A DNA stretch of 64,000 bases. Origin: Candidatus Hydrogenedentota bacterium (GTDB lineage: Bacteria > Hydrogenedentota > Hydrogenedentia > Hydrogenedentales > CAITNO01). Shown here in pieces: positions 13,999 to 56,823 of this stretch. The notes under the pieces were generated by a model that saw nothing but the letters and a program-made list of their open reading frames with translations, did no database searches and was not told where the DNA came from. The DNA lies in contig JAAYJI010000005.1 of NCBI GenBank assembly GCA_012523015.1, forward strand, positions 871 to 64,870. Reading direction: 5' to 3'. The position numbers and the translations under genes were made by a program. Numbering within the stretch: position 1 is the first letter of the stretch; every line of letters starts with the position of its first letter.

Positions 13999-14106
13999 AA
14001 GGAAACCCTTCCCTAATGCCGTGGGGCGGAGAACAAGAATTCCGATAGGTTGTTTTCTCGGTATGGCTGTTGGACTGTTACCACCCCCTTGGGCTATGAT
14101 TTGTCC

Positions 14107-17100: not shown

Positions 17101-17925
17101 GCCATGAGTATGGATGACAGCTACGCGCAGCAATTCGGACCGATCTTTTTCGCGGCCTTGGAGATGCGCGACTACGACAAGCTCCGACAGGAGATGGATC
17201 AACTGAAAAAGGCAGGTGTCGACCTCTATCCGCTCATGGATGAAATCACCCGCGATTATTTGGCAAATACTGAGCCTCGTTCCGAAGCTGAGATTGCCCT
17301 TCAAAAAATGAAAGAAGAGAACCGATACTGGGCAGATATGCAGCGTTTTGCCGAGGAAGATGAGGCAGAAACACCCGTTCCCGGCGATATCCTCTTTACC
17401 GGCAGCTCCACGGCTCGCATGTGGGATGTGAAGAAGTTTTTCCCCGATTTACCTGTTGTGAATCGCGGCTTTGGCGGCTCTGTGTATAAAGAAGTGACTC
17501 TCTTCCACAAGGAGATCGTGCGCAGCCACCAGCCCTCCATCCTTGTTTTGTATTCCGGTGATAACGACGTTTTCAGAAATGAGACCGCTGAAGAGACAGC
17601 ACAAGATGGATTGGATGCTGTAGATGCGCTGCGCACAGTGGCACCGAAGGCGCAGATTATTGTGATCAGCACCAAACCCAGTGCTTCCCGCTGGCAGTAT
17701 GCGCCGGTCATGCTCGCCGCCAATGGGATTATCGCTGAACAGCTTGCCACGCGGGAAAACATGATCTTCGTCGATCTTGTTCCTTTGCTTCTGGATGAGA
17801 AGGGCTTGCCCGATCCCGTATGTTTCCGTGACGACGAATTACATTTAAGCGATGAAGGATACCGTCGCTGGAGCGAAGCGCTGCGACCCTACCTCATCAA
17901 AGCCGGAGAAACAACAGAAAACTGA
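14107..17925 (+). CDS. Giant three-module membrane protein: GT-C-like polytopic domain (PMT_2/GT39-like, WWDEY motif), TPR-like helical repeats, and a C-terminal SGNH/GDSL hydrolase domain.
   Basis: ATG at 14107 (MNTKEKQHTIAGLF) precedes the first TM; LWWDEYASH DE motif; multi-TM region to about aa 400; helical repeat region. The C-terminus has the SGNH blocks in canonical order: FTGSS (block I Ser), GFGGS (block II Gly), YSGDNDV (block III GxND), DELHLSDEGY (block V DxxH). Confidence 0.75.
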   Translation: MNTKEKQHTIAGLFVLLLIMGIAVILRLVGITKESLWWDEYASHVYLNTPTLSDFLAWNLSLDPLSLPSYYSLEYWWTHYVHDSVLSLRLLSVLIGVAVIPLVYGLGRRMVSRRAGLLAAALVALSPNHIHHAQGIRAYVLFIFLTALVVWTFIRLLEERRLSWWAAHAIACLLLYWTHAFSVLLPLSLGIFLLFRLKVWRGFLFQWGIVQVILLAPTAFYLSTLRFWPQDTTARWIALPGVLSLGADLFFDDISAFHWQFRLGAIAASLGSLRVVVDLVFAVLILVGLLQVAASGARKKTQDSASKNNYGLLFYLWLLISPISLFILSWTMRPCMFPRYTIHSTLALYLLLGAAFGASKIPGRRLVLPLLLCGLMFLQWFWLQPGPQRSDWRSAALFLQEQAAPHDVLLVKNRLSRNIFLHNMEVLTPQNLEIPVASASTYSLLAAQTALCLGILPSETEDTRVWVLVAMDYFEPGPPQDFERYLEEWSIPFERWSFPAIREIYIYRMDRGTAALPDSIEALYTDSDIKKDSLAGDLEHHSMQAFGELATALALQGEREAAKEIFDGIFKINTFAKEIYGNFRKALDAAEELDTKAAAIETLWQAYGLRKNVQPRLMLQAFQKAAALDPMLALAHVEIGLELAQQGTYTEAREALLLAMNADDRYRDMLSSLVDALANGQDIPAKLSAVMDYREALLALSTGDTEKAQRMLQHARATDPQLVAAQLMLAYVWVDGDSDEDVEALLQQYLSATDRPLIDSFAYLAMILTEHNNLDRAANTMKMLFDTDTQTRKSYDSLAKALASGEGVSEAALSIRSMWEGFDAAANAKEEQALSAFAKAVEINPDNNPAALELALHLVAAKRQEEALPLLLRVAEKDPDYRTMTEFLIHDIRSGADTTASLNGINAYRRGILAQSRGEYEEAVTALEEAVQADPRLEAAHTSRVFNLIILRRFEEAMAGLNRYLDGTEHPSPGAFGLLTVLYIANKDTEQAVESYRTAMSMDDSYAQQFGPIFFAALEMRDYDKLRQEMDQLKKAGVDLYPLMDEITRDYLANTEPRSEAEIALQKMKEENRYWADMQRFAEEDEAETPVPGDILFTGSSTARMWDVKKFFPDLPVVNRGFGGSVYKEVTLFHKEIVRSHQPSILVLYSGDNDVFRNETAEETAQDGLDAVDALRTVAPKAQIIVISTKPSASRWQYAPVMLAANGIIAEQLATRENMIFVDLVPLLLDEKGLPDPVCFRDDELHLSDEGYRRWSEALRPYLIKAGETTEN

Positions 17926-20948: not shown

Positions 20949-22403
20949 TTAACGGAATTGGATGGCATATAGATCGGCGTCTTTCAAGACAAGGTGCAGG
21001 CGTATGGGCGTGCCCGCCAAGGCACGGATATCCTCCTTGTCTTGCCAGGCTATGGGTTGATCCACCATATTGCCAATAATTTCCGGGCAATCGTCTAAGC
21101 CGTAGCCGTCAATGGCTGAACCGTCCTCATGGAGCAATGCCACGCGGATGGATCCGGCGGCGGATGTGCTGAAATTCATATAGAGTGCCGTTCCCGTAAA
21201 AAGTAGGGGTTTCGTGGTCATACTTCCGCCGTCATAGCCGGCGCGTAGGCTCACAAAACCATCGGGCCGCATGCTGTAACGATCAAGCCTCGCCGTCGGC
21301 TGCCCGTAATTGTGCTGGATATAAAAGGACATTTCAGTCTCACCCGTAGGAACAATACCCCAAGCGGGATAGTTGGTTCGTGAGGTCCAATTTTCCAAAC
21401 CGATGCCGGGCCGTATGAAGCCTTCCATAAAAGTGCGTGTGTAGTGATTGCCGCCGCGGCTCGTGATTAGCACATTATCGGAACAGTCCTTGTAGTACCC
21501 CTCCTCAATGCCCAGCTTGCGTGCTGCCTCTTCCGATACCACGCGCCGTCCCGGCATGAAGCGTGCCGCCAAGGAAACATAAATATGGGGAGCACGATAG
21601 TAAGCGAGGGTCTGGTTCGTATAGAGTTCTTCGGGAGGACGGTCACCTGCATCCATCACGACAGGTGCGCTCCAATGCCTGAAATCGGGAGAGGTGCAGC
21701 GGCTGACCCAACGATAGCCCTTGTAATCGCCTTCCGACCAGCTCCGGAAATAACAGACATAACAGGATTCTGATTCCGACCAAAACGCCACGTTCTGAGA
21801 ATCAAAAGCGCCTTCCGTGATCATAGCTTCTTCCGTTTTATGCCACCGGAAGCCGTCTTCCGAAGCGAAACCACTGAGTCCTGTTGAAGAAGTGCCTGCC
21901 AGCGCGAGATAGCGTTCCTCCGCCGGTGCTCCGGGGCGTATATTAAGAAAGGGACTGAAGTTGTGGGAGTAGGGTGCATGCCCCGCCAAAACCACATTAT
22001 TTTCGCTGCTGTTCCGCACGGTAAAGAGTTTCAGCTTCGGTTTATTCCAAAGGATGCCGTCGCTGCTTTCCGCGTAACAGGTGACCTCATTTTGAGAGCC
22101 GTCCTTGCCCGCTTCCGGTAAGCCTCGATAATACATGCGGTAAAGGCGCTGCCCATCATCCCAAAATACCGTAACGTAGCCGCAATAGCGTCCTTCCCAA
22201 GCTTCATCAAAGAGCAGTGCAGTGCCTTTATGTTCCGGCACCCCCATAACGAGCTGTGTCCCTTCCATGGCGTCGATTAGAAAATCGTCGACGAAGAGTT
22301 CCCGTTTGGAAGCAATGTCAAGAGGAGAAGCGAAAGCCTGCGTCCCCAATGCGATACACAGCAACAGTCCCACTATCTCCCAAAAAGCTGAAAATAAGCG
22401 CAT
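20949..22403 (-). CDS. Secreted glycoside-hydrolase-like protein (five-bladed beta-propeller type, GH43/GH32/GH117-like); exact family uncertain.
   Basis: N-terminal signal peptide (LLLCIALGTQAFA); aromatic/acidic-rich repeated blades (W..D.G..Y.Y.. patterns) typical of propeller glycosidases. Confidence 0.45.
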   Translation of the reverse strand: MRLFSAFWEIVGLLLCIALGTQAFASPLDIASKRELFVDDFLIDAMEGTQLVMGVPEHKGTALLFDEAWEGRYCGYVTVFWDDGQRLYRMYYRGLPEAGKDGSQNEVTCYAESSDGILWNKPKLKLFTVRNSSENNVVLAGHAPYSHNFSPFLNIRPGAPAEERYLALAGTSSTGLSGFASEDGFRWHKTEEAMITEGAFDSQNVAFWSESESCYVCYFRSWSEGDYKGYRWVSRCTSPDFRHWSAPVVMDAGDRPPEELYTNQTLAYYRAPHIYVSLAARFMPGRRVVSEEAARKLGIEEGYYKDCSDNVLITSRGGNHYTRTFMEGFIRPGIGLENWTSRTNYPAWGIVPTGETEMSFYIQHNYGQPTARLDRYSMRPDGFVSLRAGYDGGSMTTKPLLFTGTALYMNFSTSAAGSIRVALLHEDGSAIDGYGLDDCPEIIGNMVDQPIAWQDKEDIRALAGTPIRLHLVLKDADLYAIQFR

Positions 22404-22521: not shown

Positions 22522-23310
22522 TCAGCCTTCGAAATGATGATCCATTTCGAGGGAGGGCTGCGCAAAGGATTCTTTGCCGATGGGATGGGCGGGTATGCCT
22601 GCCACCGTGGTGTGGGGCGGCACATCTTCTAATACGACGGCGCCGGCAGCGATCTTAGCGCCCTCGCCAATTTCGATATTGCCCAGTACTTTTGCACCTG
22701 TGGAAATCAAGACACCTCGGCGCACTTTCGGATGGCGGTCGCCTTGTTCTTTGCCTGTTCCGCCTAAGGTCACCCCATGGAGCATGGACACGTTTTCACC
22801 CACTACGGCGGTCTCGCCGATGACAACGCCTGTGGCATGATCGATAAAGCAGCCTTTGCCCAATTGCGCCGCAGGGTGGGCGTCAACACCAAACATTTCA
22901 GAGATACGGCTTTGCAGAAACAACGCTAAATGAATGCGTTCTTTATGCCAATAATAATGGGCGATACGCTGGGCTTGAATCGATAAAAACCCCTTAAAGT
23001 ATAAGAGCGGCTGTGAATATTTGCGGCACGCCGGGTCACGGCCGTAGACTGCCAATAAATCTGCTCGGGCGAATTGACCCAATTGTTGTTCTGCGTCATA
23101 GGCCTCTTCGATTAGGTCGCGAAGAGACAGTGCAGGCAAAGTGGCGCTTTCCAATTTGCTTGCCAATTGAAAGCCTAAAGCGTCTTCAAAGGTTTTATGA
23201 TTGAGGATGGTAGTGTGCAAAAAGCTCGCCAATAATGGTTCACGCCAAGCGCCTTCTGTTGCTTCAGCACGAATTTGTTCCCACAAACTATCGGGGGTAA
23301 CCGTTTCCAT
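22522..23310 (-). CDS. cysE: Serine O-acetyltransferase.
   Basis: N-terminal SATase helical domain plus a left-handed beta-helix with hexapeptide repeats (GVDAHPAAQLGKGCFIDHATGVVIGETAVVGENVSMLHGVTLGG...), characteristic of CysE. Confidence 0.9.
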   Translation of the reverse strand: METVTPDSLWEQIRAEATEGAWREPLLASFLHTTILNHKTFEDALGFQLASKLESATLPALSLRDLIEEAYDAEQQLGQFARADLLAVYGRDPACRKYSQPLLYFKGFLSIQAQRIAHYYWHKERIHLALFLQSRISEMFGVDAHPAAQLGKGCFIDHATGVVIGETAVVGENVSMLHGVTLGGTGKEQGDRHPKVRRGVLISTGAKVLGNIEIGEGAKIAAGAVVLEDVPPHTTVAGIPAHPIGKESFAQPSLEMDHHFEG

Positions 23311-36617: not shown

Positions 36618-36926
36618 ATGACTGTCGTGTTGCCCTTGCTGTTGCTCTTCGCTGCCCTATGTGCTTTCTTGGGATATATCATCATTATGGCGGTGCCGCC
36701 GCTCTTGCATACACCGCTCATGTCCGGCATGAATGCCTTATCGGGAATTTCGCTTTTGGCGGCGATGGCGGCTTTCCATGATCGAATACCCTATAGCCCG
36801 GGCTGGTACATTGCCCTTATCGCGATTGGCTTGGCCATGATCAATGTGGCGGGGGGCTATTGGGTGACAGAACGCATGTTGCGCATGTTTAAGTCTGATC
36901 AAAGTGGAGAGGGGAGCAAGCAATGA
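36618..36926 (+). CDS. pntAB: NAD(P) transhydrogenase alpha subunit part 2 (membrane dII-alpha).
   Basis: 102-aa protein with three TM helices containing GMNALSGISLLAAMAA and NVAGGYWVTERML, immediately before pntB. Confidence 0.85.
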   Translation: MTVVLPLLLLFAALCAFLGYIIIMAVPPLLHTPLMSGMNALSGISLLAAMAAFHDRIPYSPGWYIALIAIGLAMINVAGGYWVTERMLRMFKSDQSGEGSKQ

Positions 36927-38314
36927 GTATTGTTTACAGCTATTTTCCGCCTGCAGCACTTGTCGCCGTTTTTCTCTATAGTATCTACCTCATGCAATCG
37001 CCGAGAACAGCCTTGCGTGGGAACCGCCTGGGCGCGCTGACCATGGCTGTTGCTGTCATACTCACCTTCCACCAATACGCGCTTTTCATGAACGCTGCGG
37101 CATGGACCGCACTCGGCGTGGGCGGTATCCTGGGCTTGTTGTTGGCGCAGCGGGCGGGTACCCTACGGATGCCCCAGCTGGTAGCCTTGTTTAACGGCGT
37201 TGGCGGTGCCGCTTCCGCCTTGGTGATTCTCGCGTGTTTGTCCGCGGAGATGACGTGGGCCAACCGGCTTATTGCGTCGCTCGCCCTTGCTATAGGCAGC
37301 GTCACCTTTAGCGGCAGTATGGCGGCGGCGCTGAAGCTTGAAGGAAAGCTGTCGTCACGCCCCGTGTCCTTTCTCGGCTATTCCCAAGCGCTTCGGATCC
37401 TTTTCGTGGTGATACTCGTGTTGATTGTGATTCCCGTGGATAGAGTTGGTCACGTGTCTCTATATATCTTGACGGTGCTTGCCTTGGTCTATGGCTGGTT
37501 CATGGCGCTCCGTGTAGGCGGCGCGGATATGCCTGTCATCATCTCGCTTTTAAACTCCCTTTCCGGGGTTGCGGCGTGCGTGAGCGGTATTGCCATGGAC
37601 AATATACTGACTGCAGGTGTCGGCGCCCTTGTGGGCGTGGCGGGGATGATTCTAACGCAAATTATGTGCCGCGCTATGAATCGGGATTTATGGGCGGTCT
37701 TGAGCGGCTTCACGGTCTATAGTACTCAGAAAAAAGACGCGGCAACGGATGAGGCTGTGGCTGACGATAGGGGAGAGGAATCAGCGCAAGGTCTGACCCA
37801 ATCGGATATTCCTGCCTTGTTGGAAAAGGCGGAGACCGTGATTATTGTGCCCGGTTACGGCATGGCATTATCGCAGGCGCAGCAGGTGGTAAAAGATCTG
37901 ATGGACGCCTTGGAGGCACGGGGAAAAGACGTGAGGGTGGCGGTACATCCGGTGGCGGGCCGTATGCCCGGCCATATGCACGTGTTATTAGCGGAAGTGG
38001 GCGTTGATTATGAAATGCTTTATGATATGGTTAAAATCAATGACCGTTTCGCTGCAACAGATTTGGTCGTTGCCGTGGGCGCTTGTGATGTGATGAATCC
38101 TGCCGCAGCGACGGCGGAAGGGACGCCTATTTTCGGTATGCCTATTTTAAAGGTATCCGAAGCGAAGGCGGTGATTGTGTGTAATCTTGATGCGAAACCG
38201 GGCTATTCAGGTGTTGAAAATACACTGTATACGCAAGCCCATGTGGTAACGCTTTGGGGAGACGCTTCGGTCACCGTAGCCGACCTAAAAGATCAATTGG
38301 AAGCCCTGCAATAA
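36923..38314 (+). CDS. pntB: NAD(P) transhydrogenase beta subunit (dII-beta membrane plus dIII NADP(H)-binding domain).
   Basis: Overlaps pntAB via ATGA; multi-TM N-terminus; C-terminal dIII motifs IVPGYGMA..QAQ, VHPVAGRMPGHM and NDRF. Confidence 0.9.
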   Translation: MSIVYSYFPPAALVAVFLYSIYLMQSPRTALRGNRLGALTMAVAVILTFHQYALFMNAAAWTALGVGGILGLLLAQRAGTLRMPQLVALFNGVGGAASALVILACLSAEMTWANRLIASLALAIGSVTFSGSMAAALKLEGKLSSRPVSFLGYSQALRILFVVILVLIVIPVDRVGHVSLYILTVLALVYGWFMALRVGGADMPVIISLLNSLSGVAACVSGIAMDNILTAGVGALVGVAGMILTQIMCRAMNRDLWAVLSGFTVYSTQKKDAATDEAVADDRGEESAQGLTQSDIPALLEKAETVIIVPGYGMALSQAQQVVKDLMDALEARGKDVRVAVHPVAGRMPGHMHVLLAEVGVDYEMLYDMVKINDRFAATDLVVAVGACDVMNPAAATAEGTPIFGMPILKVSEAKAVIVCNLDAKPGYSGVENTLYTQAHVVTLWGDASVTVADLKDQLEALQ

Positions 38315-38468
38315 GTTTCGAACAGGGGCTGCACCGGGCGCGTCGCTGCTCACTGTATTCGGTGGTTCAGGAAGTGATTTGCTCTTTCTTCTGTTTTATT
38401 TGTGAGGGAACATGGTGTATAGTGTGCTCTTGTTCAAAAATCGAAAACGATAGGACGTTAAATATAGT

Positions 38469-39635
38469 ATGAAAATAGGTATTACGTGTCAGGCGACCGT
38501 CGGCGGCAGTGGTGTATTAGCGGCTGAATTGGGCTTTGCCCTCGCGCAACGTGGTCATGAAGTTCATTTTGTGACTTTGGAAGAACCCTTTCGGCTAGGA
38601 CGCTTTATTCCCAATCTCTACACCCATCATGTGGAAACCATTAGTTATCCCTTGTTCAAAATACCGCCTTATTCCATTGCGCTCTCCAGTAAAATCGCCG
38701 AAGTGGCGGAAGAATATGATATCCAAGTGTGGCACAGTCATTATGCCATGCCCAATTCGGTGGCTGCTCTCGTGGGCAGGGATATGCTGCCCCGTGAAAA
38801 ACAGTTTTGCTTAATCACGACGCTGCACGGGACCGACATCACCTTGGTGGGAACACACCCCAGTTTTTACCGTGCCACCCGGTATGTGATGGAAAACAGT
38901 TGTGCCGTTACTGCTGTTTCTAAGTGGCTCAGCCAACAAACAGAAAACGAATTTCAGCTGACCCAGCCGGTGCAGACCATTTATAATTTCGTGGATATGG
39001 ATCGCTTTTGTGATCAGCCTGCCGACCGTATCGCCTTGGCAGCGCCCAACGAAAAGATTCTCATGCACATCTCTAATTTCCGGCCCGTCAAACGGGTCAC
39101 CGACGTGGTTCGTGTCTTTGGCAAAGTCTTGGAAAAGATGCCCGCCCGATTAATCATGATCGGCGACGGCCCCGAACGGCTCTCTGCAACGGGGGTTGCG
39201 AAACAGTTGGGTATCCAAGATAAAATTCAATATCTCGGCAATTGTGACAATATCGAGTGTTTATTGGCGACTGCTGACCTGCTGTTGCAGCCCAGTGAAC
39301 ACGAGAGTTTCGGACTGGTGCCCCTTGAGGCGATGGCGAGTGAAGTGCCGGTCATTGTGACGCGCAGCGGCGGCGTGACCGAGGTCGTGCGCCACGGCGA
39401 ATCAGGCTTTTTGTGTGAGGTAGGCGATATTGAGAGTATGGCACTGCACGCCATAAAAATTTTGAGTGACCCCGTATTGGCGAAGCAGATGGGCCAGCGG
39501 GGCCGCAAGGTCGCCGCCACAGAATTTGGCCGCGAGAAGATTGTAGACCAATATGAGGCGTTGTACGAGGAGATATTAGCGCGGCGCGCAAATATGCCCC
39601 ACCCAGAAGGACATCTTCCGGGTATGCCTAAATAA
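38469..39635 (+). CDS. bshA: GT4 family glycosyltransferase of the BshA / N-acetyl-alpha-D-glucosaminyl L-malate synthase type.
   Basis: N-terminus MKIGITCQATVGGSGVLAAELGFALAQRGHEVHF closely resembles the BshA signature MKIGITCYP.GGSGVV.TELG; C-terminal GT4 E..G...EAMA motif (ESFGLVPLEAMASEVPVI). Assigning specific bacillithiol function is inference. Confidence 0.6.
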   Translation: MKIGITCQATVGGSGVLAAELGFALAQRGHEVHFVTLEEPFRLGRFIPNLYTHHVETISYPLFKIPPYSIALSSKIAEVAEEYDIQVWHSHYAMPNSVAALVGRDMLPREKQFCLITTLHGTDITLVGTHPSFYRATRYVMENSCAVTAVSKWLSQQTENEFQLTQPVQTIYNFVDMDRFCDQPADRIALAAPNEKILMHISNFRPVKRVTDVVRVFGKVLEKMPARLIMIGDGPERLSATGVAKQLGIQDKIQYLGNCDNIECLLATADLLLQPSEHESFGLVPLEAMASEVPVIVTRSGGVTEVVRHGESGFLCEVGDIESMALHAIKILSDPVLAKQMGQRGRKVAATEFGREKIVDQYEALYEEILARRANMPHPEGHLPGMPK

Positions 39636-39675
39636 TGCGCCTCTAGTGCCCTTGTTTTTTGCTGAAAGGAATACG

Positions 39676-42600
39676 CGTGAAATCGAGGTGGACACAGCGC
39701 CTATTTTCGCATAGCCCTATCATAGACATTCTTTTAGCCTTCTTGATCTTTTGTATAGGCGGCGCTGTCGGCTATGGACATTTACGTTCGCTGCGCACCG
39801 ATCGTTCCTCTGTGACCGGCATTGAACTGCTCTATGGTCCTGCTGCTATGCTCGTTCAAGGCAAAGGCTTTATTTCACCCAACGTCCTAGAGTACCCGGA
39901 GCTGCGCGCCTTCTTAAATGGCGAAATTGAATCCCTTCCCGAAGACGCCGTTCCGGAAATCGTCGTGGAAAGTCCCTCACAAGTAGCCACGTATCATCGC
40001 TATTTAAATTATAGTGTGGCACTCTTTTGGCGGCTCTTTGGTATTTCGTGGACCAGTACGGAACCTTTGCTTGCGCTGCTCTTTGCGTGGTCAAGCCTTG
40101 CTATTTATGGGTTGATGCGGCTTGGGATGCGCCGCTCCATCGCTTTCGTTCTCGTGTTTTTGGTAATACTTTCTCCGGCAATGTTGGGGCGTATCACAGA
40201 ATTACGGGATTTCAGCAAGGCTCCTTTTATCCTGAGTGTATTGTGGGGCTTAGGTTGGGCTATCCGACACAAGATCTCCTCGCGCCAATTATTATTTCTC
40301 TCCATTGTCTTGGGCGTGACCATCGGTATTGGCTGCGGGTTCAGGATGGATCTCGTTGTTTTCATGCCTTTGGCTTGGGCGGTCTTGAGTGTTGTCGCCT
40401 TACGTGTGGACGGGACAGGTAGGTCGCGCTTGCGCCCTTTAATGTCAGTGCTTCTTTTACCTCTTTGTTTTTTGATCACAATCCTACCATTGTTTACAGA
40501 AATAGAGGGACCAACCCACCCTAATCACCACTTAGTACAAGGTCTCTCCACGAAACGACAATACAATCTAGGACTGCTTCCTGCATCTTACAGACCCTTG
40601 TCCTCAGGCTCAGACTGCTATGTGTTTTCTGCTATCCAATCGCATATGCGCAGAACAAGCGGCGAAAACAAAAGTAATTTTTCCTTAGATACCTCAGGTG
40701 CCGATGTGGCAGGAACGAATTGGCTTAAATCGGCTATTGGCTATTTTCCCGCTGATTTTCTTGCCAGAGCTTATGGCGCCGTCTTGAGGAATCTGCGCTA
40801 TGCCGATGCCTATCCGCACACCTTTGCTATGCCCACGAAAGGGCACGCGTATATGTATTCTTTTCATCATAAGCTGGCGGCTCATTTGAATCGCTTCGGG
40901 CTGGTTTACGCAGTGGCTGTTCTCCTCATCTTGGCGGTTCATCAGCCCTTGTGGGCATTGGGCATCTTTTTCTTCGTCCTATACGTATTGGGATATATTG
41001 GGCTCCAGTGTGAATACCGACATGCTTTTCCCCTTGCTTTTTTCCCTTTTTGGATCCTTGGTTTTTTGCTCAATTGGACACTGATTTTTACCGTTCATCT
41101 CTACAAACGCGGTGTGCCCCCCAAAGGGTGGTGGATTGTTTCCGGTATCCGCGCCGCCGTATTTTTATCTCTATGTTTTATTTTGCTGATCGCGCCGCTC
41201 ATGGTATCGCGCATCTACCAAGAACACAAGATCAGACCTTTATTGAATCTGTATAGAAAGGCGGAAACGACACCTGTGCCGGTCCGTATGGAAAGTAAAC
41301 ACGGTTGGACTCTATTTGCCCCTGAGAACACTTCGGCAAGAGGTCCCGCGGATTCGGATCTTCAAACCCTTTATAAAATCCTTGCCGGATTTTTCAATCC
41401 CGAATTTCGTCTCTGGCATGTGCGGACGCGGCTGATGATGGTCGAATTAAAGGCCGATGCCTGCGTAGAATGGCTCATACAAAAATATGATTCCGTGATA
41501 AACCTCAACGACTTTTCGCAACTCTTGCCTTTGCCCTATGTCTCCGAAAAGAGCCATAACATCCGCTACTACTTTCCCGTTTATGAGCTGCTTATGCCGC
41601 TCGTTGATAAGGAGTTCTTGCTAGGTAGAAATCGCTTTCAAGGGATCGCATTGCCCGATGATCAAGCAGACGCTTTTCTCGGGTTCTACGAAGTGTCACC
41701 GCCTGATGAACTGGATTTTTTGATGCAGGTGGCGCTTACGGACGATGCCGGTTCTGAAAAATGCTATCAACGAATTAACGGATTGCCTGATCCGCTCCTG
41801 TATTATCAAGAAGAAATGAACGCCGTGGACAATCCTAATTTGTTTTTTGCAGCACAAAGTTTCGGACGTAAAGAAGAAGCCTGTTTTCTCGCCCGCGCAC
41901 AATTGGTCTTGAGCCGAAAACCTGAAACACGCATACTCATTAGCGATTTGCTATTTAGAGAGGGGCAGACGGAGGAGGCTTTGGATGCTGCATTCGCTAT
42001 TAATCCCCGTACCGAGGACGAAAAGAGCCGCCAGTTGAGACTGTTGGAAGTGATTGGCCATCAGTATCTGATTGAAGACAAAATAAGTGAAGCAGAATAT
42101 ATTTATCGCTTTATATGGGATCAGAAATCCGAGAAACGCAGTCCTTTACGCATACAGCTGGCAGGGGCGATGTGCGCGAAAGACCCTGATAAAGCTTTCG
42201 AACAATACCGTTTCGTCTTGGAAGAAGAACCGGATAATGAAGTCGCTGTTAACGGTATGATCTCTTTGCTCCAAAGCAGCGCCACGACGGAAGAGCAATT
42301 GTCGTTTTGGAAAGATTTGACTGAACAGCACCCCCAATCCCTTTATCCTTGGTTACAGCTTGGGATCACTTTGGAAAGGGCCGGTTTAGATGCCGCCGCC
42401 GCTGATGCCTATGGGAAGGCCTATCCCACACACAAAGATCATCCGGAACTGATGCTTCGTTATAAGATTGCCCAAAAAGGAATTGCTTATTTCCTATCGG
42501 ATAGAAAAGAACTGCTCCGCATCTTGGGCGAGCATCCTCTGCTGGAAGACGTCGTGATATTTTATATTGATCGGGAAGGGCGCCGTTTACTCGCCGCTAA

Positions 42601-44479
42601 TGAGGTGAGCAAAGCCATGGATACGTACCAGCGTGCACTGGATTATTTCCCCGACAGTGAAAGGCTGGCGCTGGGACGGGCGAAGGCTTTTTCTTTGGGA
42701 AACGAATTTGAACCGGCTATGGAGCTTTTAAAAAGCTTGATCAATGGCTCTATGGCAGAGGAAACCGTTGCGTGGATGGATCAGATGCTGAGCCGCCCCG
42801 ATAAAGACGCTCTCTCTTATTGGCAAGAGCTGGGAAAAGAATTTCCTGAGAATAAAGCCATTCACGATTTGATTCTTCGCAAACAAGAGGTCCAAGGGCG
42901 GGCTGCTTTTGAATCGGGAGAGTATTCGGCTGCTCTCGACATTCTGAAAACAATGGATTCCACTGAGGACATCGGTGCGAGTCTTCCCATCTTGATAGCT
43001 CTATCAGAGATCGCAACGGGAGCAGAAGCCAACGACGCACAAAAGATTTTGACTCAAATTGAGGCACGGCCCGAACTGAAGGATGATGCGATTGGGTGGA
43101 TCCTCATGGTCTTGGATCAGCTTCACGACGAAGGACGGACGAATGCCATGGAGCGGCTGGGACAAGTGACCGTCGCCCTAGCTCCCGAAAAAGAGCGAGG
43201 CTGGCGCCTTCGGATTCTTGCCCATCTTGAACAGCGCGAGACCGAGCGCGCTTTGGCCTTGTGTGAAGAGGCGCTGTCCAACGTGGAAGACTTGAGCGAA
43301 ATTCTTCCGCTCGTGCAGCGCAGTTGTGATAAACCGGAACGGCTGTTGCAGATATGGCAGGACTTGGATCGTAAACGTCCCGCACATCCGCTCATACGAC
43401 GTTATCTTGCCCGTGCCTATGAAGCCAATAACCGCTATGTAGAGGCGGCCGAACTATATAAAAACTTGAGCGAATCCGAAAACTTTCCCCGTGATCTTGT
43501 TTTTAATCAAGGCTGCGCATTGATCGGAGCGGGGAACTGGGGGCATGGCGTGGCGCTGGTACGGAAGTCTTTGGACGCAAGTTCTCCTTACGCGCCTGTC
43601 ATGGTTGAACAATTAATGGCGCTGGGTGAAGGCTTTCTCAAAGAAGAAAAACCGTCCAGAGCGGAGTTGATGTATTCCTTTGCCTCTGCGATGGCGCCCG
43701 ACTCAAGCTTCGTCTTATTGCGTTTAGGTCAGACGCAATTGGCTTGGGGAAAGACGGAACGTGCTGTTAAAAGCTGGGTTCAGGCGATCCGGGTCGAAGC
43801 CGATAGTGGCGCCGCCGCACAAGCCGCGCATTTCTTGTTCCACCATCTTCCCGAGGAGATGCAATTGGAGACATGGTTATCTTTAACCGAAGACGGGGAA
43901 GAGGAATCACCCTTGCCTTATGCCTATAGCGTATTGGCATGGGTAAAAGCAGGCGATATAAGCGAAGCACAGCGCTTAGCCGACAAGCTGTCCGCAATGC
44001 ATCCGCAATCGTCGGAAGCCCTTTGGATTACGGGTGTATTGGCTTGCCTTGCGGGAAATGAGGACTTGGGTATTGACCAAATTCGTACGGCGGCAAAAGA
44101 ACGCCCGGAACTTGTCGACGACAGCGCTCGCTTCCTAGCAGATGTGGCACTTCAAAATAAGGATAACGAAGGGCTCGTACAGGCGGAGCGTTTATTGAGG
44201 ACAGCGCAAAAGCTGGAACCGGAAAACTTGTCTCATTTCATGCATTTGGGAGAGGTCTTGCTCCGCGCAGGTGTTATTGATGAAGCGATCGAGCAATTCA
44301 CCCGTCTGCTAATGCGTGAACCGGAATCTCTTAAAACAGCGGAGCTTTTAGATGCCGCCTATACGGCAAAAAATGATCCGGAAGCACGTTTGCAAGGATG
44401 GCAGGCAATTAGTAACGTCCATCCCACTGCGCATTTGCCACGACAACGCCTCGAAAAACTCGAGAAAGGGCCGCGGTGA
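39676..44479 (+). CDS. Giant membrane protein (about 1600 aa): N-terminal polytopic (about 12 TM) domain of unknown family, possibly GT-C-like, plus a C-terminal TPR-like helical repeat array; third paralog of the 9700 and 14107 proteins.
   Basis: Long hydrophobic N-terminal region (aa 20 to about 520) with multiple predicted TM helices, then about 1000 aa of A/L/E-rich repeats with TPR-like periodicity. Start placed at the GTG at 39676, which has an AAAGGAA RBS; the track ORF starts at a TTG at 39659. Confidence 0.6.
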
Positions 44480-44523: not shown

Positions 44524-46371
44524 TTATTCTAAGGCGTCATGGATTATTTGCGCCAAGTTTCTGCTAATCGAAGGAACAGCGGCGAGTTGTTCCACAGAGG
44601 CTTTTTTGATTTCAGCGACCGAGCCGAAGGCACTCAACAATTGTCTTGCTCGTTTTGAGCCTATCCCGGGGATGGTAGTCAAAACACTGGTGAGTCTTGT
44701 TTTCGAACGTTTCTTTCGGTGATAAGTAATGGCGAAACGATGCGCCTCGTTTCTGACGATACTCAAAAGCCGAACGACCGAGCTATTCTGTTTCGGTATG
44801 ATCGGATTGCTTCGACCCGGTATGAAAAAGCGTTCAAAGGATGCGCTGTTATTTTTCCCGCTGCGCGCCTCGGCAATAGAGACGCACGCGAGCCTATCAA
44901 AACCAAGATCCTTAAGAATGGTATGGGCAACATTTAGCTGTCCCTTCCCGCCGTCAATGAGCACAAGGTCAGGCAGATCTTCCTGTCGTGAAATTTTACT
45001 ATAGCGTCTAAAGATTACTTCTCGCATCGATGCGTAATCATCTTGCCCTTCAATGGAGCGAATCATATAATGCCGGTAACAACTCTTTACCGGAACACCG
45101 CGCTCAAAAACGACCATGGCCGCCACGGTTGTATCGCCTTGGATGGTTGAGATATCGAAACATTCAATCCGATTGGGCAATACGGGTAAATGGAGCGTCT
45201 GTTGAATTTCTTCGAGGGTATTTTGAATCGCTTTTTCATGCCCCTTCCGTTCAATAAAGGCCTGACGGGCATTATCCGACGCTAATTCCACCAATCCGAT
45301 AAGGACGCCTTGTTTCGGTACACGCAAGGTGGTTGGAGCACCGCGCTGTTCACTGATGATTTCTGCGAGGATACTGCGTTCTTCCAAGTCGATGGGCACG
45401 AGAATTTCAGATGGGATAAAGGGCGTAGATTCATAATATTGCAATAAAAAAGAACTCAGCAGCTCCGGTAAAGGCGCTTCAATGCGATCAAAAGCGAAAC
45501 TTTTGCCGCCAACCATGGCGTTGTTACGATAATAAAGAACGTGGAGCTGCAAATAGTTTCCTTCTGCGTGATAGCCAAAGACATCTCTGTCTCGGGCACG
45601 CCGACCGTGTACGACACTGCGTTGCGGTTCCATGGTAGTATGCAGATCACGGAGCCGATCCCGTACCACTGCCGCCTCTTCGAAACGGAGCGCATCAGAG
45701 AGGGTGTTCATCTCTTTTAATAATTGTTCTTGGAGATCGCCGCTGCGGCCTTCTAATATGAGTAGTGCTTGCTGCACCAATGCCGCGTAATCCTCCTTGC
45801 TAATCAATCCTACGCAGGGAGCGTGACATTGTTTTATCTGATAATAGATGCACGGTCGTGTTCGGTTTGCCAGCACGTGGTTGGAACACACACGGAGCGG
45901 CACCAGTTTTTGGAGGCGTTTTATCGTTTCTCTTGCCGCTCGTGTATCATGATAAGGACCAAAATAACGCGCTTTATCTTTTTTTCTGCGGCGCACTACG
46001 GTCAGGCGAGGAAAGTTTTCTGTAGGATCCAGACGCAGGCTCACATAGGTTTTATCATCTCGTAGGCGAACATTATACCGTGGTTTATGCGCTTTGATGA
46101 GGGTGTTTTCGAGGAGCAGCGCCTCTTTTTCGGAAGAGACTCGTATATACTCTATAGAGGCGACGCGGCGCATGAGAAATTTCACACTGTATCTGCTATC
46201 GCTCTCATTGATATAATTGCGGATACGCGCGCGCAGGTTTTTTGCCTTGCCGATGTACATGATTTTGGCTGCCTCATCACGCATGATGTAGCAGCCGGGA
46301 GTTGTGGGCGCTGCATCGGCATCTTTCTTCAGCGCGGAAGAAATAATGTTGTTGTCTTGTTTGTCTTTCAT
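44524..46371 (-). CDS. uvrC: Excinuclease ABC subunit C.
   Basis: GIY-YIG domain (GCYIMRDEAAKIMYIGKAKNLRARIRNY), Cys-rich region, UvrBC-interaction domain, RNase H-like endonuclease domain and C-terminal HhH2 (GIGSKRARQLL). Confidence 0.95.
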   Translation of the reverse strand: MKDKQDNNIISSALKKDADAAPTTPGCYIMRDEAAKIMYIGKAKNLRARIRNYINESDSRYSVKFLMRRVASIEYIRVSSEKEALLLENTLIKAHKPRYNVRLRDDKTYVSLRLDPTENFPRLTVVRRRKKDKARYFGPYHDTRAARETIKRLQKLVPLRVCSNHVLANRTRPCIYYQIKQCHAPCVGLISKEDYAALVQQALLILEGRSGDLQEQLLKEMNTLSDALRFEEAAVVRDRLRDLHTTMEPQRSVVHGRRARDRDVFGYHAEGNYLQLHVLYYRNNAMVGGKSFAFDRIEAPLPELLSSFLLQYYESTPFIPSEILVPIDLEERSILAEIISEQRGAPTTLRVPKQGVLIGLVELASDNARQAFIERKGHEKAIQNTLEEIQQTLHLPVLPNRIECFDISTIQGDTTVAAMVVFERGVPVKSCYRHYMIRSIEGQDDYASMREVIFRRYSKISRQEDLPDLVLIDGGKGQLNVAHTILKDLGFDRLACVSIAEARSGKNNSASFERFFIPGRSNPIIPKQNSSVVRLLSIVRNEAHRFAITYHRKKRSKTRLTSVLTTIPGIGSKRARQLLSAFGSVAEIKKASVEQLAAVPSISRNLAQIIHDALE

Positions 46372-50622: not shown

Positions 50623-50682
50623 TAGAATAAATTGCGGTTCCTTCCGAATCCGTGTGTATTATCACTGTCACTAATTGTTGCC

Positions 50683-51600
50683 ATGAAAAAAAGTTCTTTC
50701 AAATGGATGTGCTGCCTGCTGTGCTTGGTTGCGAAACACTGTTTGTTCGCGACACAGGCCTATGGTGATCTCATTGTTTTGGAGAATAAGGAGACCTTGT
50801 CGGGAAGTTTTTCGCGGATTAAAAATAATACCCTCGTTTTTCGAACCTCCTTGGCTGGTCAGATGATGACGCCCTTGGAAAACGTGAAACAAATCTCGTC
50901 CACGGCGCCGTTATACGTAGAGATGGAGAACGGTCAGGTTTATTTCGGTCGATTAGCGGTTCGGCAGGACAGGCAAGTTATTGAGCCTCTAGATGGCGGC
51001 TCCGCTCACAACATTCAGATAACCGATATTAAAGAGACTTTACCTATACCCACCGTACCGGAGGGGATAAAGGAGGAAGACAAAGAAGCGTGGCTTACAG
51101 ATGCTCTTCCTGATATTCAAAAAAGTGACGGCTATCCTTCTCTCAGCGATAAAAACTTGCAATTTGATGCGTCGGGAAAATCAGGCCCGTGGGATGCTGA
51201 AGAACCTTATCCTGATAAAGGGGAAGGAGGGCACCGTCTCGTTTCGCCCACCAATCTGGGAGAGCCCATCGATAAATCCGAAACCCATCCCGGATTAAGC
51301 TTAAATTTTGAAGCGGGGCAAGACACGACCTCGCCTGCCACGAAAAAAATAGAAGCGCCTCTCATTGAAGGAGCCGAGCAGCAACGTCTGAAAACAGCCC
51401 ATAGAGAAGAGGTAACGACAGGAGCGCAAGAGCAACGGGAAGACAGCACCGCTCCGTTGACTTCACCCTTTGGGTATCAACTCCGTGTGCGTGCCTTTCC
51501 GCAACCTCAAAGCAGCGATGAAAAAAGTGGTGAATCCGCCAAGCCCAAGGCGTATCGGATGCCGCCTGCGCCGCCGCTGCGCCTGCGTTACAGGATGTGA
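50683..51600 (+). CDS. Secreted hypothetical protein with a Pro-rich, low-complexity C-terminus.
   Basis: Start at MKKSSFKWMCCLLCLVAKHCLFATQAYG (signal peptide); the C-terminal half is polar/Pro/Glu-rich without a recognisable domain (not an OmpA/Pal domain). Confidence 0.4.
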   Translation: MKKSSFKWMCCLLCLVAKHCLFATQAYGDLIVLENKETLSGSFSRIKNNTLVFRTSLAGQMMTPLENVKQISSTAPLYVEMENGQVYFGRLAVRQDRQVIEPLDGGSAHNIQITDIKETLPIPTVPEGIKEEDKEAWLTDALPDIQKSDGYPSLSDKNLQFDASGKSGPWDAEEPYPDKGEGGHRLVSPTNLGEPIDKSETHPGLSLNFEAGQDTTSPATKKIEAPLIEGAEQQRLKTAHREEVTTGAQEQREDSTAPLTSPFGYQLRVRAFPQPQSSDEKSGESAKPKAYRMPPAPPLRLRYRM

Positions 51601-53819: not shown

Positions 53820-54596
53820 ATGTTGTTTGTAGTTGATATCGGAAATTCCCATACGGTTTTGGGCTTATACAAAGAAAAGGAACTCTTGGGTCAATGGCGC
53901 GTCTTTACTTCGAATTACCGTACCGGCGATGAATTGTCGATCTTGTTGACCATGCTGTTGCAAAGTATTCAGGTGAATCAACAGGAAATCACCGGTTGCT
54001 GCGTGTCCAGTGTGGTGCCGCCCTTAAACGGCGCCATTCAATATGTGTGCAACCGCGCTTTTGGCATTGATGCGCTGATGGTTGAGCCCGGCGTAAAAAC
54101 GGGTGTTATGCTCCAATGTGAAAATCCGAGGGAAGTGGGCGCAGACCGCATCGCCAATGCCGTTGGCGCCCTCGAAGAATATCCCGGCCCCCTCATCGTC
54201 ATTGATTTTGGAACGGCCATTACCTTCGACGTGATTACAGAGCGTATGGAGTGGCTGGGCGGCGTCATTGCCCCCGGCATACAATTATCGGCAGATTCCC
54301 TTTTTGAACGCTGTGCCCGACTGCCTCGCGTCGATATTGTAGCGCCCAAAGAAGTGATCGGACGCAATACGGTAACCAACATTCAAGCGGGCCTGACCTA
54401 TGGCTATGCGGATATGGTCGATGGCATTGTGGGTCGAATTTGCAATGAACTGGGCCGTGATGCGAAGGTCATTGCGACCGGTGGTTATGCCCGTCGGATA
54501 AGCAGTGTTTCCAAACGTATCGATCTTGTGGATCCGCTCTTGACCCTGAAAGGGCTGCGCGCCATTTACGAACGGAACTTGGGGAAAGGATCATGA
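53820..54596 (+). CDS. coaX: Type III pantothenate kinase.
   Basis: MLFVVDIGNSHTVLGLY (the Bvg-accessory-factor/CoaX N-terminal DIGNT motif), ADR, IVIDFGTAITFD, ATGG. Confidence 0.9.
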   Translation: MLFVVDIGNSHTVLGLYKEKELLGQWRVFTSNYRTGDELSILLTMLLQSIQVNQQEITGCCVSSVVPPLNGAIQYVCNRAFGIDALMVEPGVKTGVMLQCENPREVGADRIANAVGALEEYPGPLIVIDFGTAITFDVITERMEWLGGVIAPGIQLSADSLFERCARLPRVDIVAPKEVIGRNTVTNIQAGLTYGYADMVDGIVGRICNELGRDAKVIATGGYARRISSVSKRIDLVDPLLTLKGLRAIYERNLGKGS

Positions 54597-55186
54597 GAAA
54601 AGTTATCCTAGGTGTTCTGGTATCTCTTTTGCTGGTCAGCGCTTGCAGCAAGCCTGTTCAGGAAGAAAGAGCTGCGCCGATTCTTGAAGATAATACGGGC
54701 GCATTGGTTTCACGAGCGGCGCCCATTGTGGAGCCCATGCAAATGAAGGGGATTAATTTGTACATGCACCGCCCCGCCAGCGCCGATACGGCAACGGGCA
54801 AACCCGAACTGTGGATCAGTGCCGACTCTTTTTCCGTTCAAGAGGAACAGATTTATTCTTTTGAAAAGGCCCATGCCGTCATCTATTCTAAAGATGATCA
54901 GGAAATTACCTTGGATGCTGCACAAGGTATTTTTGAGCAGGACAAAAGTGCGCGCTTGGAAGGAGAAGTGCGGATGGTGGCAGGAAGCTTAAAAATAATG
55001 CTGCATGATATTGAATGGTCTCGGGAAGAAGGTACCCAAGGAACCGCAAAAACAGATCGATCTGTTATTATTGATGATCCGGATTTACAGTTAAACGCTG
55101 CCGGTATGCGCCTCTACCCCGATGAACGTGTTTTTGAACTTACGGACGTGTCCGGCGTGGTGCGTTTTGGAAAGGAACTAACGTGA
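54593..55186 (+). CDS. lptC: LptC-like periplasmic LPS-export protein, lipoprotein-anchored variant.
   Basis: Lipobox LVSAC; about 190 aa, predicted all-beta; overlaps the coaX stop (ATGA) and lptA (ATGA), directly upstream of the lptA-like and lptB genes. Assigned by size and context; sequence similarity is weak. Confidence 0.5.
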   Translation: MRKVILGVLVSLLLVSACSKPVQEERAAPILEDNTGALVSRAAPIVEPMQMKGINLYMHRPASADTATGKPELWISADSFSVQEEQIYSFEKAHAVIYSKDDQEITLDAAQGIFEQDKSARLEGEVRMVAGSLKIMLHDIEWSREEGTQGTAKTDRSVIIDDPDLQLNAAGMRLYPDERVFELTDVSGVVRFGKELT

Positions 55187-56064
55187 TTCCTAAAAAGATT
55201 TTCATAATCGCCTTATGTTTTTTGAGTCTGCCGCTAATGGCGCAAACAGACAGCGGCATGGGCGGCTATTCCTCAATGGAAATAGAAGCCGGTACGATGA
55301 AAGGTAATTTCGCGACCGGCGCCATCGAAGAGATGACCGGCGGTGTACGTATACGGCTTCTCTCCGATGAACCCGGCTTGGCTGACTTGCCCATCGAAGC
55401 CGGTACCATGAAATTTACCTGGGAAAAAGGGCGTGCCACACCGGCGACGGTGGTCATGGAAAGTAATGTCAAGGTTAAGCACCCCGATGCCGAGATCAGC
55501 GCGGGCCGTGCAGAATGGAATTTTAATTCGGGGGAACTCGTCTTTTCCGGCAATCCCGTCGTGAATAGCGAGCGGCTGCAGGGTTTGCGCGGTGAAAAGA
55601 TGATTCTAAATCTGAAAACCAATACTTTTGAGGTTACCCGCGTACGAGCCGATCAGGTGCCTTTGCATGGCGCTGCAAATGGTGCCGCTGCGCCCGCCTC
55701 CAAAGCCTATGAATTGCGCAAGGATGATATTAAAGACTGGCCCGGTCTCATGAACGCCATTAAGGCGGAAGCCGCTTCAGCCGATCCTTCTCCCGGTCGT
55801 CAGATCCTCAAGCAGATGTCAACGCAAAACCAGCAACTGCTGCTTCAGATGGAAACGGCGCAGTTGGTCGAACGCAAAGAAGATATTTTACGACTCTTTA
55901 ACGGCATATTGCCGGCACAGGGATTCTATGCTGCCGATGCGTGGGCAGGTAAAACATTATCTGACGAAGCACGCCAATTGACGGCTGCCGACAATCTTGA
56001 ACAAAATGATTTGAGTAAGCTGAACCGGCTTCTATTGGAAGCCGCTTATCCTTTTGCATTCTAA
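55183..56064 (+). CDS. lptA: LptA/OstA-like periplasmic LPS transport protein.
   Basis: Signal peptide (IIALCFLSLPLMAQ); OstA-N-like beta-jellyroll segment with I.A..M.....G...F.GNV pattern (IEAGTMKGNFATG; IEAGTMKFTW); located between the lptC-like gene and lptB. Confidence 0.5.
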   Translation: MIPKKIFIIALCFLSLPLMAQTDSGMGGYSSMEIEAGTMKGNFATGAIEEMTGGVRIRLLSDEPGLADLPIEAGTMKFTWEKGRATPATVVMESNVKVKHPDAEISAGRAEWNFNSGELVFSGNPVVNSERLQGLRGEKMILNLKTNTFEVTRVRADQVPLHGAANGAAAPASKAYELRKDDIKDWPGLMNAIKAEAASADPSPGRQILKQMSTQNQQLLLQMETAQLVERKEDILRLFNGILPAQGFYAADAWAGKTLSDEARQLTAADNLEQNDLSKLNRLLLEAAYPFAF

Positions 56065-56085
56065 TCCAACTTAAAGGAGCGCACG

Positions 56086-56823
56086 GTGTCAACGGACCAA
56101 CAGGCATTACTTTATATGGAAGGCCTGACCAAGGCATTTAAAAAACGGGTCGTTGTCCGAGAAATTTCTCTTGCCTTGGAGGCAGGCGAGGTGGTGGGGC
56201 TCCTTGGTCCGAATGGTGCCGGTAAAACCACTACCTTTAGTATGATTGTCGGGCTTTTGAAACCCGATGCCGGCACCATACACTTCGACGGCATTAACAT
56301 TACCAAGACGCCCTTGTATCGCCGTGCCCGCGCCGGAATTGCCTATTTGCCCCAAGAGCCCTCTGTCTTCCAACAATTGACGGTGCGGCAAAACCTTCAA
56401 GCCGTGTTGGAATACCAATCGCTGAAACGCGCGGAACGTATCGCGCGCATCGACAGCGTCATGACCGAACTCAATATCACCCATCTCTCCGACAGTCCTG
56501 CCTATACCTTGTCCGGGGGAGAACGGCGCCGCACGGAAATTGCTCGCGCCCTTGTTATCGAACCGCGAATATTTCTGTTGGATGAGCCTTTCGCAGGTAT
56601 TGATCCCATTGCTGTAGCCGATTTACAGCTGATTGTCCGCGACCTGAGTAAGCGGGGAATCGGCGTTCTTATAACCGATCATAATGTACGTGATACACTG
56701 GCTATTACAGACTACGCCTACATCATCAATGAAGGCTCTCTATTGGCAGCGGGTAAGCCTCAAGATATTGCTGAGGATCCGCTCGTTCGAAAAATATATC
56801 TTGCCGAAAAATTCCGCCTATAA
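56086..56823 (+). CDS. lptB: LPS export ABC transporter ATP-binding protein LptB.
   Basis: Walker A GPNGAGKTT, Q-loop, signature LSGGERRR.EIARAL, Walker B FLLDEPFAGIDP, and the LptB-specific GIGVLITDHNVR.TL H-motif region. Confidence 0.9.
   Translation: MSTDQQALLYMEGLTKAFKKRVVVREISLALEAGEVVGLLGPNGAGKTTTFSMIVGLLKPDAGTIHFDGINITKTPLYRRARAGIAYLPQEPSVFQQLTVRQNLQAVLEYQSLKRAERIARIDSVMTELNITHLSDSPAYTLSGGERRRTEIARALVIEPRIFLLDEPFAGIDPIAVADLQLIVRDLSKRGIGVLITDHNVRDTLAITDYAYIINEGSLLAAGKPQDIAEDPLVRKIYLAEKFRL

Follow-up and report, generated by a model that had tools for sequence, protein, structure and literature searches.

Two neighbouring genes on the forward strand of a 64-kb stretch of a Candidatus Hydrogenedentota metagenome-assembled genome, called the window throughout, are the subject of this report. 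The first is bshA, which codes for a glycosyltransferase of family GT4. The second codes for a 1600-aa protein, referred to as the large protein, which joins a membrane domain of GT-C fold to a long array of tetratricopeptide repeats (TPRs). It is quite probable that these genes share a lineage-specific operon and are functionally unrelated, i.e., that an annotated BshA and a divergent, uncurated GT-C/TPR glycosyltransferase are encoded side by side. Both open reading frames (ORFs) exist as described in an earlier note on this DNA, including the quoted N-terminus MKIGITCQATVGGSGV..ELG of the GT4. The functional pairing which that note proposed is the part that we contest.

BshA would be a cytoplasmic, retaining GT-B enzyme, forming GlcNAc-alpha-L-malate from UDP-GlcNAc and L-malate, with which bacillithiol synthesis begins. 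Its gene would have left the methyltransferase-bshC-bshB1-bshA operon that is usual in the phylum and, in the ancestor of a small subclade, come to sit between pntAB and a resident large gene beside uvrC. The large protein has 11 predicted transmembrane helices (TMs), a small beta-sandwich and a predicted periplasmic TPR solenoid of about 850 aa; its active site would face the periplasm. By analogy with PMT, TMTC and ArnT, its donor would most likely be a sugar linked to polyprenyl phosphate, and the acceptor of this sugar would be a molecule of the periplasm or envelope which the TPR arm and the beta-sandwich recruit. Both genes would probably be co-transcribed in the subclade without having a substrate in common.

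Synthases of GT-C donors are typically GT2 and not GT4 enzymes. The BshA product is a soluble cytoplasmic intermediate (PMC5790435), and GT-C enzymes use lipid-phosphate-linked donors at the non-cytoplasmic face (PMC7801869). Because a soluble cytoplasmic product here faces a lipid-linked external donor, bshA and the large gene do not appear to belong to one pathway. The suggestion of the earlier note, in which the GT4 supplies the membrane protein with a donor or primer, is not supported, given this mismatch and the lack of a recurring GT4 beside relatives of the large gene. The GT-C family itself and not its neighbour bshA is the part worth following up.

The GT4 and the bacillithiol genes of the phylum

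Judged by sequence the GT4 is a bona fide, orthologous BshA, and it is already annotated as such. The NCBIfam equivalog model for BshA, TIGR03999, matches with 494.6 bits (cutoff 273.7), aligning residues 1-370 of the protein with positions 1-374 of the 375 in the model; the next-best NCBIfam family scores 131.7 bits, which is under its own cutoff. When all PDB sequences are searched the five top matches are BshA entries (2JJM, 3MBO, 5D00, 6D9T and 6N1X; E 3e-107 to 7e-99), aligned at full length. The next GT4 follows at 4e-17, MshA at 2e-15 and PimA-type enzymes at 1e-11, a gap of about 80 orders of magnitude in E-value. Homology to the Bacillus and Paenibacillus enzymes extends over the full length (about 46% identity; 43-47% across 370-380 residues). 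NCBI lists the identical protein as 'BshA [Candidatus Hydrogenedentes bacterium]' (NLO31785.1, MFA7691582.1, MGI6138633.1), and it recurs unchanged on public contigs of 154 kb (ENA ERZ27247376), 122 kb and 69 kb (JGI 3300015214, 3300060803).

A neighbour-joining tree nests the window GT4 inside the Hydrogenedentota BshAs. It falls without a long branch into a subclade with L005, L006, L007 and L093 (L-numbers denote comparison loci or contigs). This subclade is sister to L008-L010, which have the gene order methyltransferase-bshC-bshB1-bshA. Family-invariant residues are retained: a set of 17 reference BshAs, drawn from six or more phyla, shares 85 unchanged alignment columns, and the window protein keeps 83 of these (changes: T to A, A to S). 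In L005 and L093 all 85 are intact, and this retention matches leave-one-out controls. The E-x7-E motif of GT4 enzymes is present as E279-x7-E287. These sequences give no hint of relaxed constraint or of an altered active site in the window BshA, and formation of GlcNAc-Mal from UDP-GlcNAc and L-malate is expected from orthology. The hypothesis that this bshA is a second, paralogous copy beside a canonical operon in the same genome found no support in the tree or in residue conservation.

The genes of the bacillithiol pathway exist in Hydrogenedentota as complete operons. The orthologous bshA of L008 and L013 is immediately preceded by ORFs for BshC and then BshB1, both passing their equivalog models: BshC scores 389.5 and 397.4 bits, respectively (cutoff 265.8), BshB1 241.6 and 256.2 bits (cutoff 182.5). 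A class I S-adenosylmethionine (SAM) methyltransferase gene precedes bshC-bshB1-bshA at both loci (L008 6878-11149, L013 6975-11134). The same order was found by tblastn or Pfam gene calls in L009, L012, L014, L085, L097, L098, L106, L107 and L109; P0173 and P0248, which represent lineages other than that of the window, likewise have canonical bsh operons. The order in Zixibacteria is bshC-bshA-bshB. The window subclade differs in that its bshA is separated from bshC/bshB and stands between pntAB and the GT-C/TPR gene. Dispersed bsh genes are normal; in B. subtilis bshC lies elsewhere than bshA, which is co-transcribed with mgsA and bshB1 (PMC5790435).

The methyltransferase of the bsh cluster may be an NmbA-like N-methyl-bacillithiol synthase (compare PMC6282198), in which case N-methyl-bacillithiol would be predicted in Hydrogenedentota. 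Among the curated NCBIfam models its best match was an unrelated methyltransferase, below cutoff. A further, independent example of a split bsh cluster is seen at L104 5974-8306, a Hydrogenedentota-like locus with bshC-bshB, where the methyltransferase is missing upstream and the 5 kb that follow contain no bshA. As the bshC-bshB of the window organism this locus is ruled out by GC content (64% vs 51% in the window); it illustrates that a Hydrogenedentota lineage can retain bshC-bshB after loss of the adjacent bshA. Altogether the BshA half, annotated before, carries little weight; at most, Hydrogenedentota now join the phyla for which bacillithiol, possibly N-methylated, is predicted.

A GT-C membrane domain with a predicted periplasmic TPR arm

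The topology of the large protein was derived from a model, hydropathy and the positive-inside rule. The first 13 residues contain three K/R and no D/E, and the number of TMs is odd: 11, not the 12 counted in the earlier note. This puts the N-terminus inside and the C-terminus outside, with a first external loop (EL1) of 87 aa and an EL4 of 113 aa. At the level of fold the membrane domain is GT-C and not a transporter, as the earlier note had supposed. Pfam and NCBIfam have no match in aa 1-730 and beyond that only TPR families. TPR-type Pfam matches extend from about aa 740 to 1595, i.e., over some 850 aa where 1000 aa had been claimed; NCBIfam contributes only sub-threshold matches to TPR proteins. 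A profile search with the family alignment against PDB sequences was dominated by TPR matches and was uninformative on the membrane domain.

When the N-terminal 690 aa are used as a query, a word-index search retrieves 41 homologues, every named one from Hydrogenedentes. An exhaustive HMMER search yields 1,231 cluster representatives down to E 1e-3, of which 481 reach 1e-30. About a dozen of them, proteins of 1,534-1,673 aa with 40-56% identity, make up the orthogroup to which the window protein belongs. The beta-sandwich (aa ~530-690) is conserved throughout the family; the TPR part diverges fast, identities being 33-40% in L005-L007 and 24-27% in L184-L186. The orthologous large ORF at L006 4895-9375 breaks off after 1345 aa, with similarity to TPRs resuming in a different frame up to the contig end, probably the result of a frameshift or an assembly error.

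The large protein belongs to the GT-C superfamily by fold and is placed in neither PMT_2 nor TMTC. PMT_2 is reached weakly by 10 of 40 relatives (best E 2e-6). By hhalign TM2-TM6 align with the PMT_2 regions of the two other giant proteins of the window (9700-13998 and 14050-17925) at E 2e-5 and 1e-4 (probability 76% and 55%), and R223-x-D225 is aligned with an R-x-E of the window's PMT_2 paralogue. The link to these giants by profile is weak. In contrast to the PMT_2/ArnT type (PF13231), to which the two giants belong, the large protein misses PF13231 even at E 0.1 and stands for a family of its own, which counts at least 1,231 cluster representatives and has the motifs RDFSKAPF, GxGxGFRxD and EYRH.

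The motifs of the GT-C clan are M1 (DD/DE) in EL1, M3 (RxD) in EL2, M4 (K-E) in EL3, M5 (Asp) in EL4 and M7, an Arg before TM10 (PMC7801869). Matched to these by position only, the large protein has R177-D178-x-x-K181 in EL2 (M3), R223-x-D225 in EL3 (M4), D313 or D360, together with R364, in EL4 (M5), and R448-H449 at the start of helix 447-478 (M7), all invariant or nearly so. In EL1 the residue E50 is the putative counterpart of the catalytic Asp of GT-C enzymes (ArnT D55, Pmt1 D77). It sits at the N-terminus of the first juxtamembrane helix and is invariant in seven orthologues and the nine closest sequences; D or E occupies this position in 24 of 40 family members. Sixteen of the 40 have no acidic residue at or beside it, and such paralogues may be non-catalytic or use another base. 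For the large protein itself catalysis is likely by analogy with characterized GT-C enzymes.

The closest parallel in architecture is found in the eukaryotic O-mannosyltransferases TMTC1-4, which have 11 TMs, a cytoplasmic N-terminus, a long EL1 and TM7-TM8 loop, and C-terminal lumenal TPRs (PMC7801869). The large protein shares this general plan, as well as Arg/Asp-type motifs in EL2 and EL3 and the Arg before TM10. It differs in that PMT_2 and DUF1736 do not match, the DD motif of EL1 is absent, with a single Glu as its putative replacement, a beta-sandwich is inserted ahead of the TPRs and the TPR array is far longer (~850 aa); further, the donor of the bacterial protein would be undecaprenyl-linked and not dolichyl-linked. 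By analogy it may work like a TMTC, though it is not a member of that family. Pmt1, Pmt2 and Pmt4 (GT39) are more distant: identity is about 10%, the large protein has neither an MIR domain nor the DE motif, and its soluble domains are C-terminal instead of being inserted in loops.

Members of the wider GT-C/TPR group are associated with SGNH hydrolases, both fused and adjacent. In the window the protein encoded at 14050-17925 (+) has a PMT_2-type GT-C domain and TPRs, with a hydrolase domain of GDSL/SGNH type (aa 1133-1273) at the C-terminal side, and at L102 8001-12681 a divergent family member is followed by a separate gene for a 510-aa GDSL lipase. L099/L100 10001-23507 carries four tandem paralogues of the divergent family (1165-1169 aa each), upstream of which are encoded an ABC transporter of MacB/FtsX type and a 526-aa protein without a family match.

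The large protein is the more useful half of the pair, since its family, 1,231 sequence clusters or more, has a clear GT-C fold and yet escapes every curated profile. Its members, of which a genome encodes several, join a membrane transferase to a carbohydrate-binding-module (CBM)-like domain and a very long TPR arm in the periplasm. Should they glycosylate proteins or glycans, Hydrogenedentota would possess bacterial counterparts of the eukaryotic TMTCs, and a large share of their envelope biogenesis would so far have gone unstudied.

Reach of the linkage and competing explanations

The pair is present in five related lineages with gaps between bshA and the large gene of 41 nt (window), 47 nt (L005), 3 nt (L006), 3 nt (L007) and 0 nt (L187). 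The window and L005-L007, taken as species representatives, conserve the entire order pntAA-pntAB-pntB-bshA-large gene, with 63-77% identity for the pnt part. A terminator scan detected no terminator-like hairpin between bshA and the large gene. Because of the tight gaps and the missing terminator, co-transcription of the pair in this subclade is very likely.

A different picture emerges outside this group. L093, a member of the same subclade with a 74% identical BshA, has dctPQM-usp-bshA and no large gene. In L008-L014 the surroundings of bshA yielded no homologue of the membrane domain, the downstream flank being short at several of these loci. L184, L185 and L186 possess orthologues of the large protein (41-44% identity) and no bshA or adjacent GT4. 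In L184 a sulfatase is located upstream of the large gene, pnt is absent, and the downstream synteny of the window is kept (uvrC, 59% identical; Sm_multidrug_ex; TolB-like, 72%). The uvrC/Sm_multidrug_ex/TolB-like arrangement is the older conserved synteny of the large gene. Since L184 keeps this side without pnt or bshA, the large gene would have been the resident beside which pnt-bshA arrived; such a rearrangement of bshA is suggested by comparison of gene orders. Candidate catalytic and ligand-binding residues are identical in seven orthologues of the large protein, irrespective of a bshA neighbour.

Paralogues of the large gene have unrelated neighbours: the ABC transporter before the four tandem copies, a CitMHS transporter and the GDSL lipase. 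No GT4 recurs beside the paralogues of L099, L101 and L102. Whether viewed from bshA or from the large gene, the adjacency is restricted to one small subclade, and linkage of a GT4 with GT-C is not conserved across GT-C-bearing lineages (L184-L186, L099, L101, L102, L093). As the window has three GT-C/TPR giants, one GT4 adjoining one of them is statistically unremarkable by itself. The earlier note had allowed for a true BshA with a coincidental linkage, and this branch is supported: the BshA tests are passed, the operons of the phylum are complete and the adjacency is confined to one subclade. Demonstrating how shallow the linkage is should stop a misleading 'BshA partner' annotation from spreading.

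The readings to be weighed overlap in part, and the confidence placed in each need not add up to certainty. A recruited or moonlighting BshA-like GT4 might make a cytoplasmic GlcNAc primer or donor which, once flipped, the GT-C/TPR protein would use or extend, just as the GT4 enzymes PimA/PimB' feed the GT-C enzyme PimE. Such a functional pair would agree with co-directional genes at 0-47 nt without an intervening terminator in five lineages, with the departure of bshA from the bshC-bshB operon, which coincides exactly with this subclade, and with the fact that the bshB/bshC of this genome were not located in the searches made. It is nevertheless very improbable: the GT4 gives no indication of an altered function (83-85 of 85 invariant columns, 494 bits, a normal branch), L093 has this type of bshA without a large gene, the candidate active-site residues are all present in the large genes of L184-L186, where bshA is missing, other family members have no recurring GT4 beside them, and neither a flippase nor a polyprenyl-phosphate GT2 is encoded in the 64-kb window. 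We give just as little credence to the more general proposal that BshA, GlcNAc-malate or bacillithiol feeds or primes an envelope glycoconjugate assembled by the GT-C/TPR enzyme in this subclade; if true, it would be an unprecedented connection of low-molecular-weight thiol synthesis with periplasmic glycosylation.

An adaptive co-regulation requires no shared metabolite. Here pntAB (NADPH), bshA (thiol buffer) and the GT-C/TPR gene (envelope) would form a transcription unit responding to the same stress, which is consistent with the conservation of the whole pntAA-pntAB-pntB-bshA-large gene block in the window and L005-L007 and with the very short gaps. In Bacillus, too, bshA shares a transcript with genes as loosely related as mgsA and is located next to panBCD (PMC5790435). 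Yet 154 nt lie between pntB and bshA, L093 has only a broken block, wider relatives have none, and nothing separates this explanation from neutral operon inertia; we consider it unlikely. A redox-themed grouping of pnt with bshA is no less plausible than a link of bshA with the large gene. Improbable to a similar degree is a large protein acting as a non-catalytic scaffold of GT-C fold, the TPR arm of which holds periplasmic proteins in the manner of PIG-U/GAB1 in the glycosylphosphatidylinositol (GPI) transamidase.

Several observations weigh against the favoured explanation, i.e., an operon shared by a BshA and an unrelated GT-C glycosyltransferase. The window protein has no significant match to any curated GT-C family, and PF13231 does not match at E 0.1 or better. 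EL1 contains no invariant Asp, the canonical residue being represented only by a Glu, the putative equivalent E50. The 0-3 nt gaps in three lineages and a gene order which was kept while the TPR part fell to 33-40% identity exceed the conservation usual for random neighbours, so that selection for co-expression is possible. Finally, bshB and bshC were found neither in the 64-kb window nor in L001-L007. The check for these genes that the earlier note had named thus gave complete operons at the level of the phylum and nothing in further searches for the genome itself. A search for BshC homologues seeded with L012 did not recover the bshC of the window population among the best 120 of 780 matches; the accession series of the window BshA (NLO31785, MFA7691582, MGI6138633) matched none of 10 BshC candidates, and a metagenome scan with a BshC alignment had no hit from the window's own metagenomes among the matches listed. 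Bacillithiol production by this genome is therefore a prediction at the level of the phylum only.

Layout of the locus and neighbouring genes

Coordinates of the bshA locus and its neighbours in the window
Feature	Position	Strand	Evidence or remarks
pntAA	35359-36543	+	Pfam AlaDh_PNT_N/C, PNTB_4TM and PNTB across the pnt genes (gene calls, identical public contigs)
pntAB	36618-36926	+	Proton-translocating NAD(P) transhydrogenase subunit
pntB	36923-38314	+	Proton-translocating NAD(P) transhydrogenase subunit
pntB-bshA spacer, 154 nt	38315-38468	+	Single weak promoter-like match 38441-38468; Rfam none
bshA, GT4 N-acetyl-alpha-D-glucosaminyl L-malate synthase, 388 aa, ATG start	38469-39635	+	TIGR03999, PDB, NCBI name
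bshA-large gene spacer, 41 nt	39636-39676	+	Shine-Dalgarno GAAAGGA 39664-39670; no terminator
Membrane domain of the 1600-aa protein, aa 1-528, GT-C fold	39677-41260	+	11 TM helices, N-terminus inside, EL1 aa 39-125, EL4 aa 275-387
Periplasmic beta-sandwich, aa ~530-690	41264-41746	+	Family-wide conserved; weakly CBM-like jelly roll
TPR array, ~aa 737-1592, predicted periplasmic	41885-44452	+	Pfam TPR_16, TPR_19, TPR_14, TPR_2; ORF end 44479
uvrC, convergent with the large gene	44524-46371	-	Pfam

The mechanical ORF of the large gene, 39659-44479 (+), opens with a TTG at 39659 and would give 1606 aa. Most likely translation starts at the GTG at 39677, resulting in 1600 aa, because GAAAGGA ends 6 nt upstream of it and the gene calls of identical public contigs use this GTG. 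Counted from the bshA stop codon the GTG lies 41 nt downstream, and the ribosome-binding site begins after 28 nt, not after the 23 nt given in the earlier note. In the promoter and terminator scan, promoter-like matches at the locus were at or below shuffled expectation; an Rfam scan of the whole 64-kb window detected no element.

The general context of the window is one of housekeeping genes: mgtE, cysE, dinB, hisI, pntAB, uvrC, nadC, birA, coaX and lptC/lptB. For four ORFs of 322-624 aa Pfam gives nothing at E 1e-5 or better, i.e., 4202-6076 (-), 6295-7821 (+), 20949-22403 (-) and 50632-51600 (+); two of them flank the GT-C/TPR giants at 9700-17925. The serine acetyltransferase gene cysE (cysteine supply), 22522-23310 (-), is at a distance of 15 kb from bshA and is thiol-themed, not linked. 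At 54593-56823 (+) coaX is followed by lptC, a 293-aa ORF (possibly lptA) and a gene for an lptB-like ABC ATPase; these lpt genes imply a diderm envelope with lipopolysaccharide (LPS) transport and hence a periplasm.

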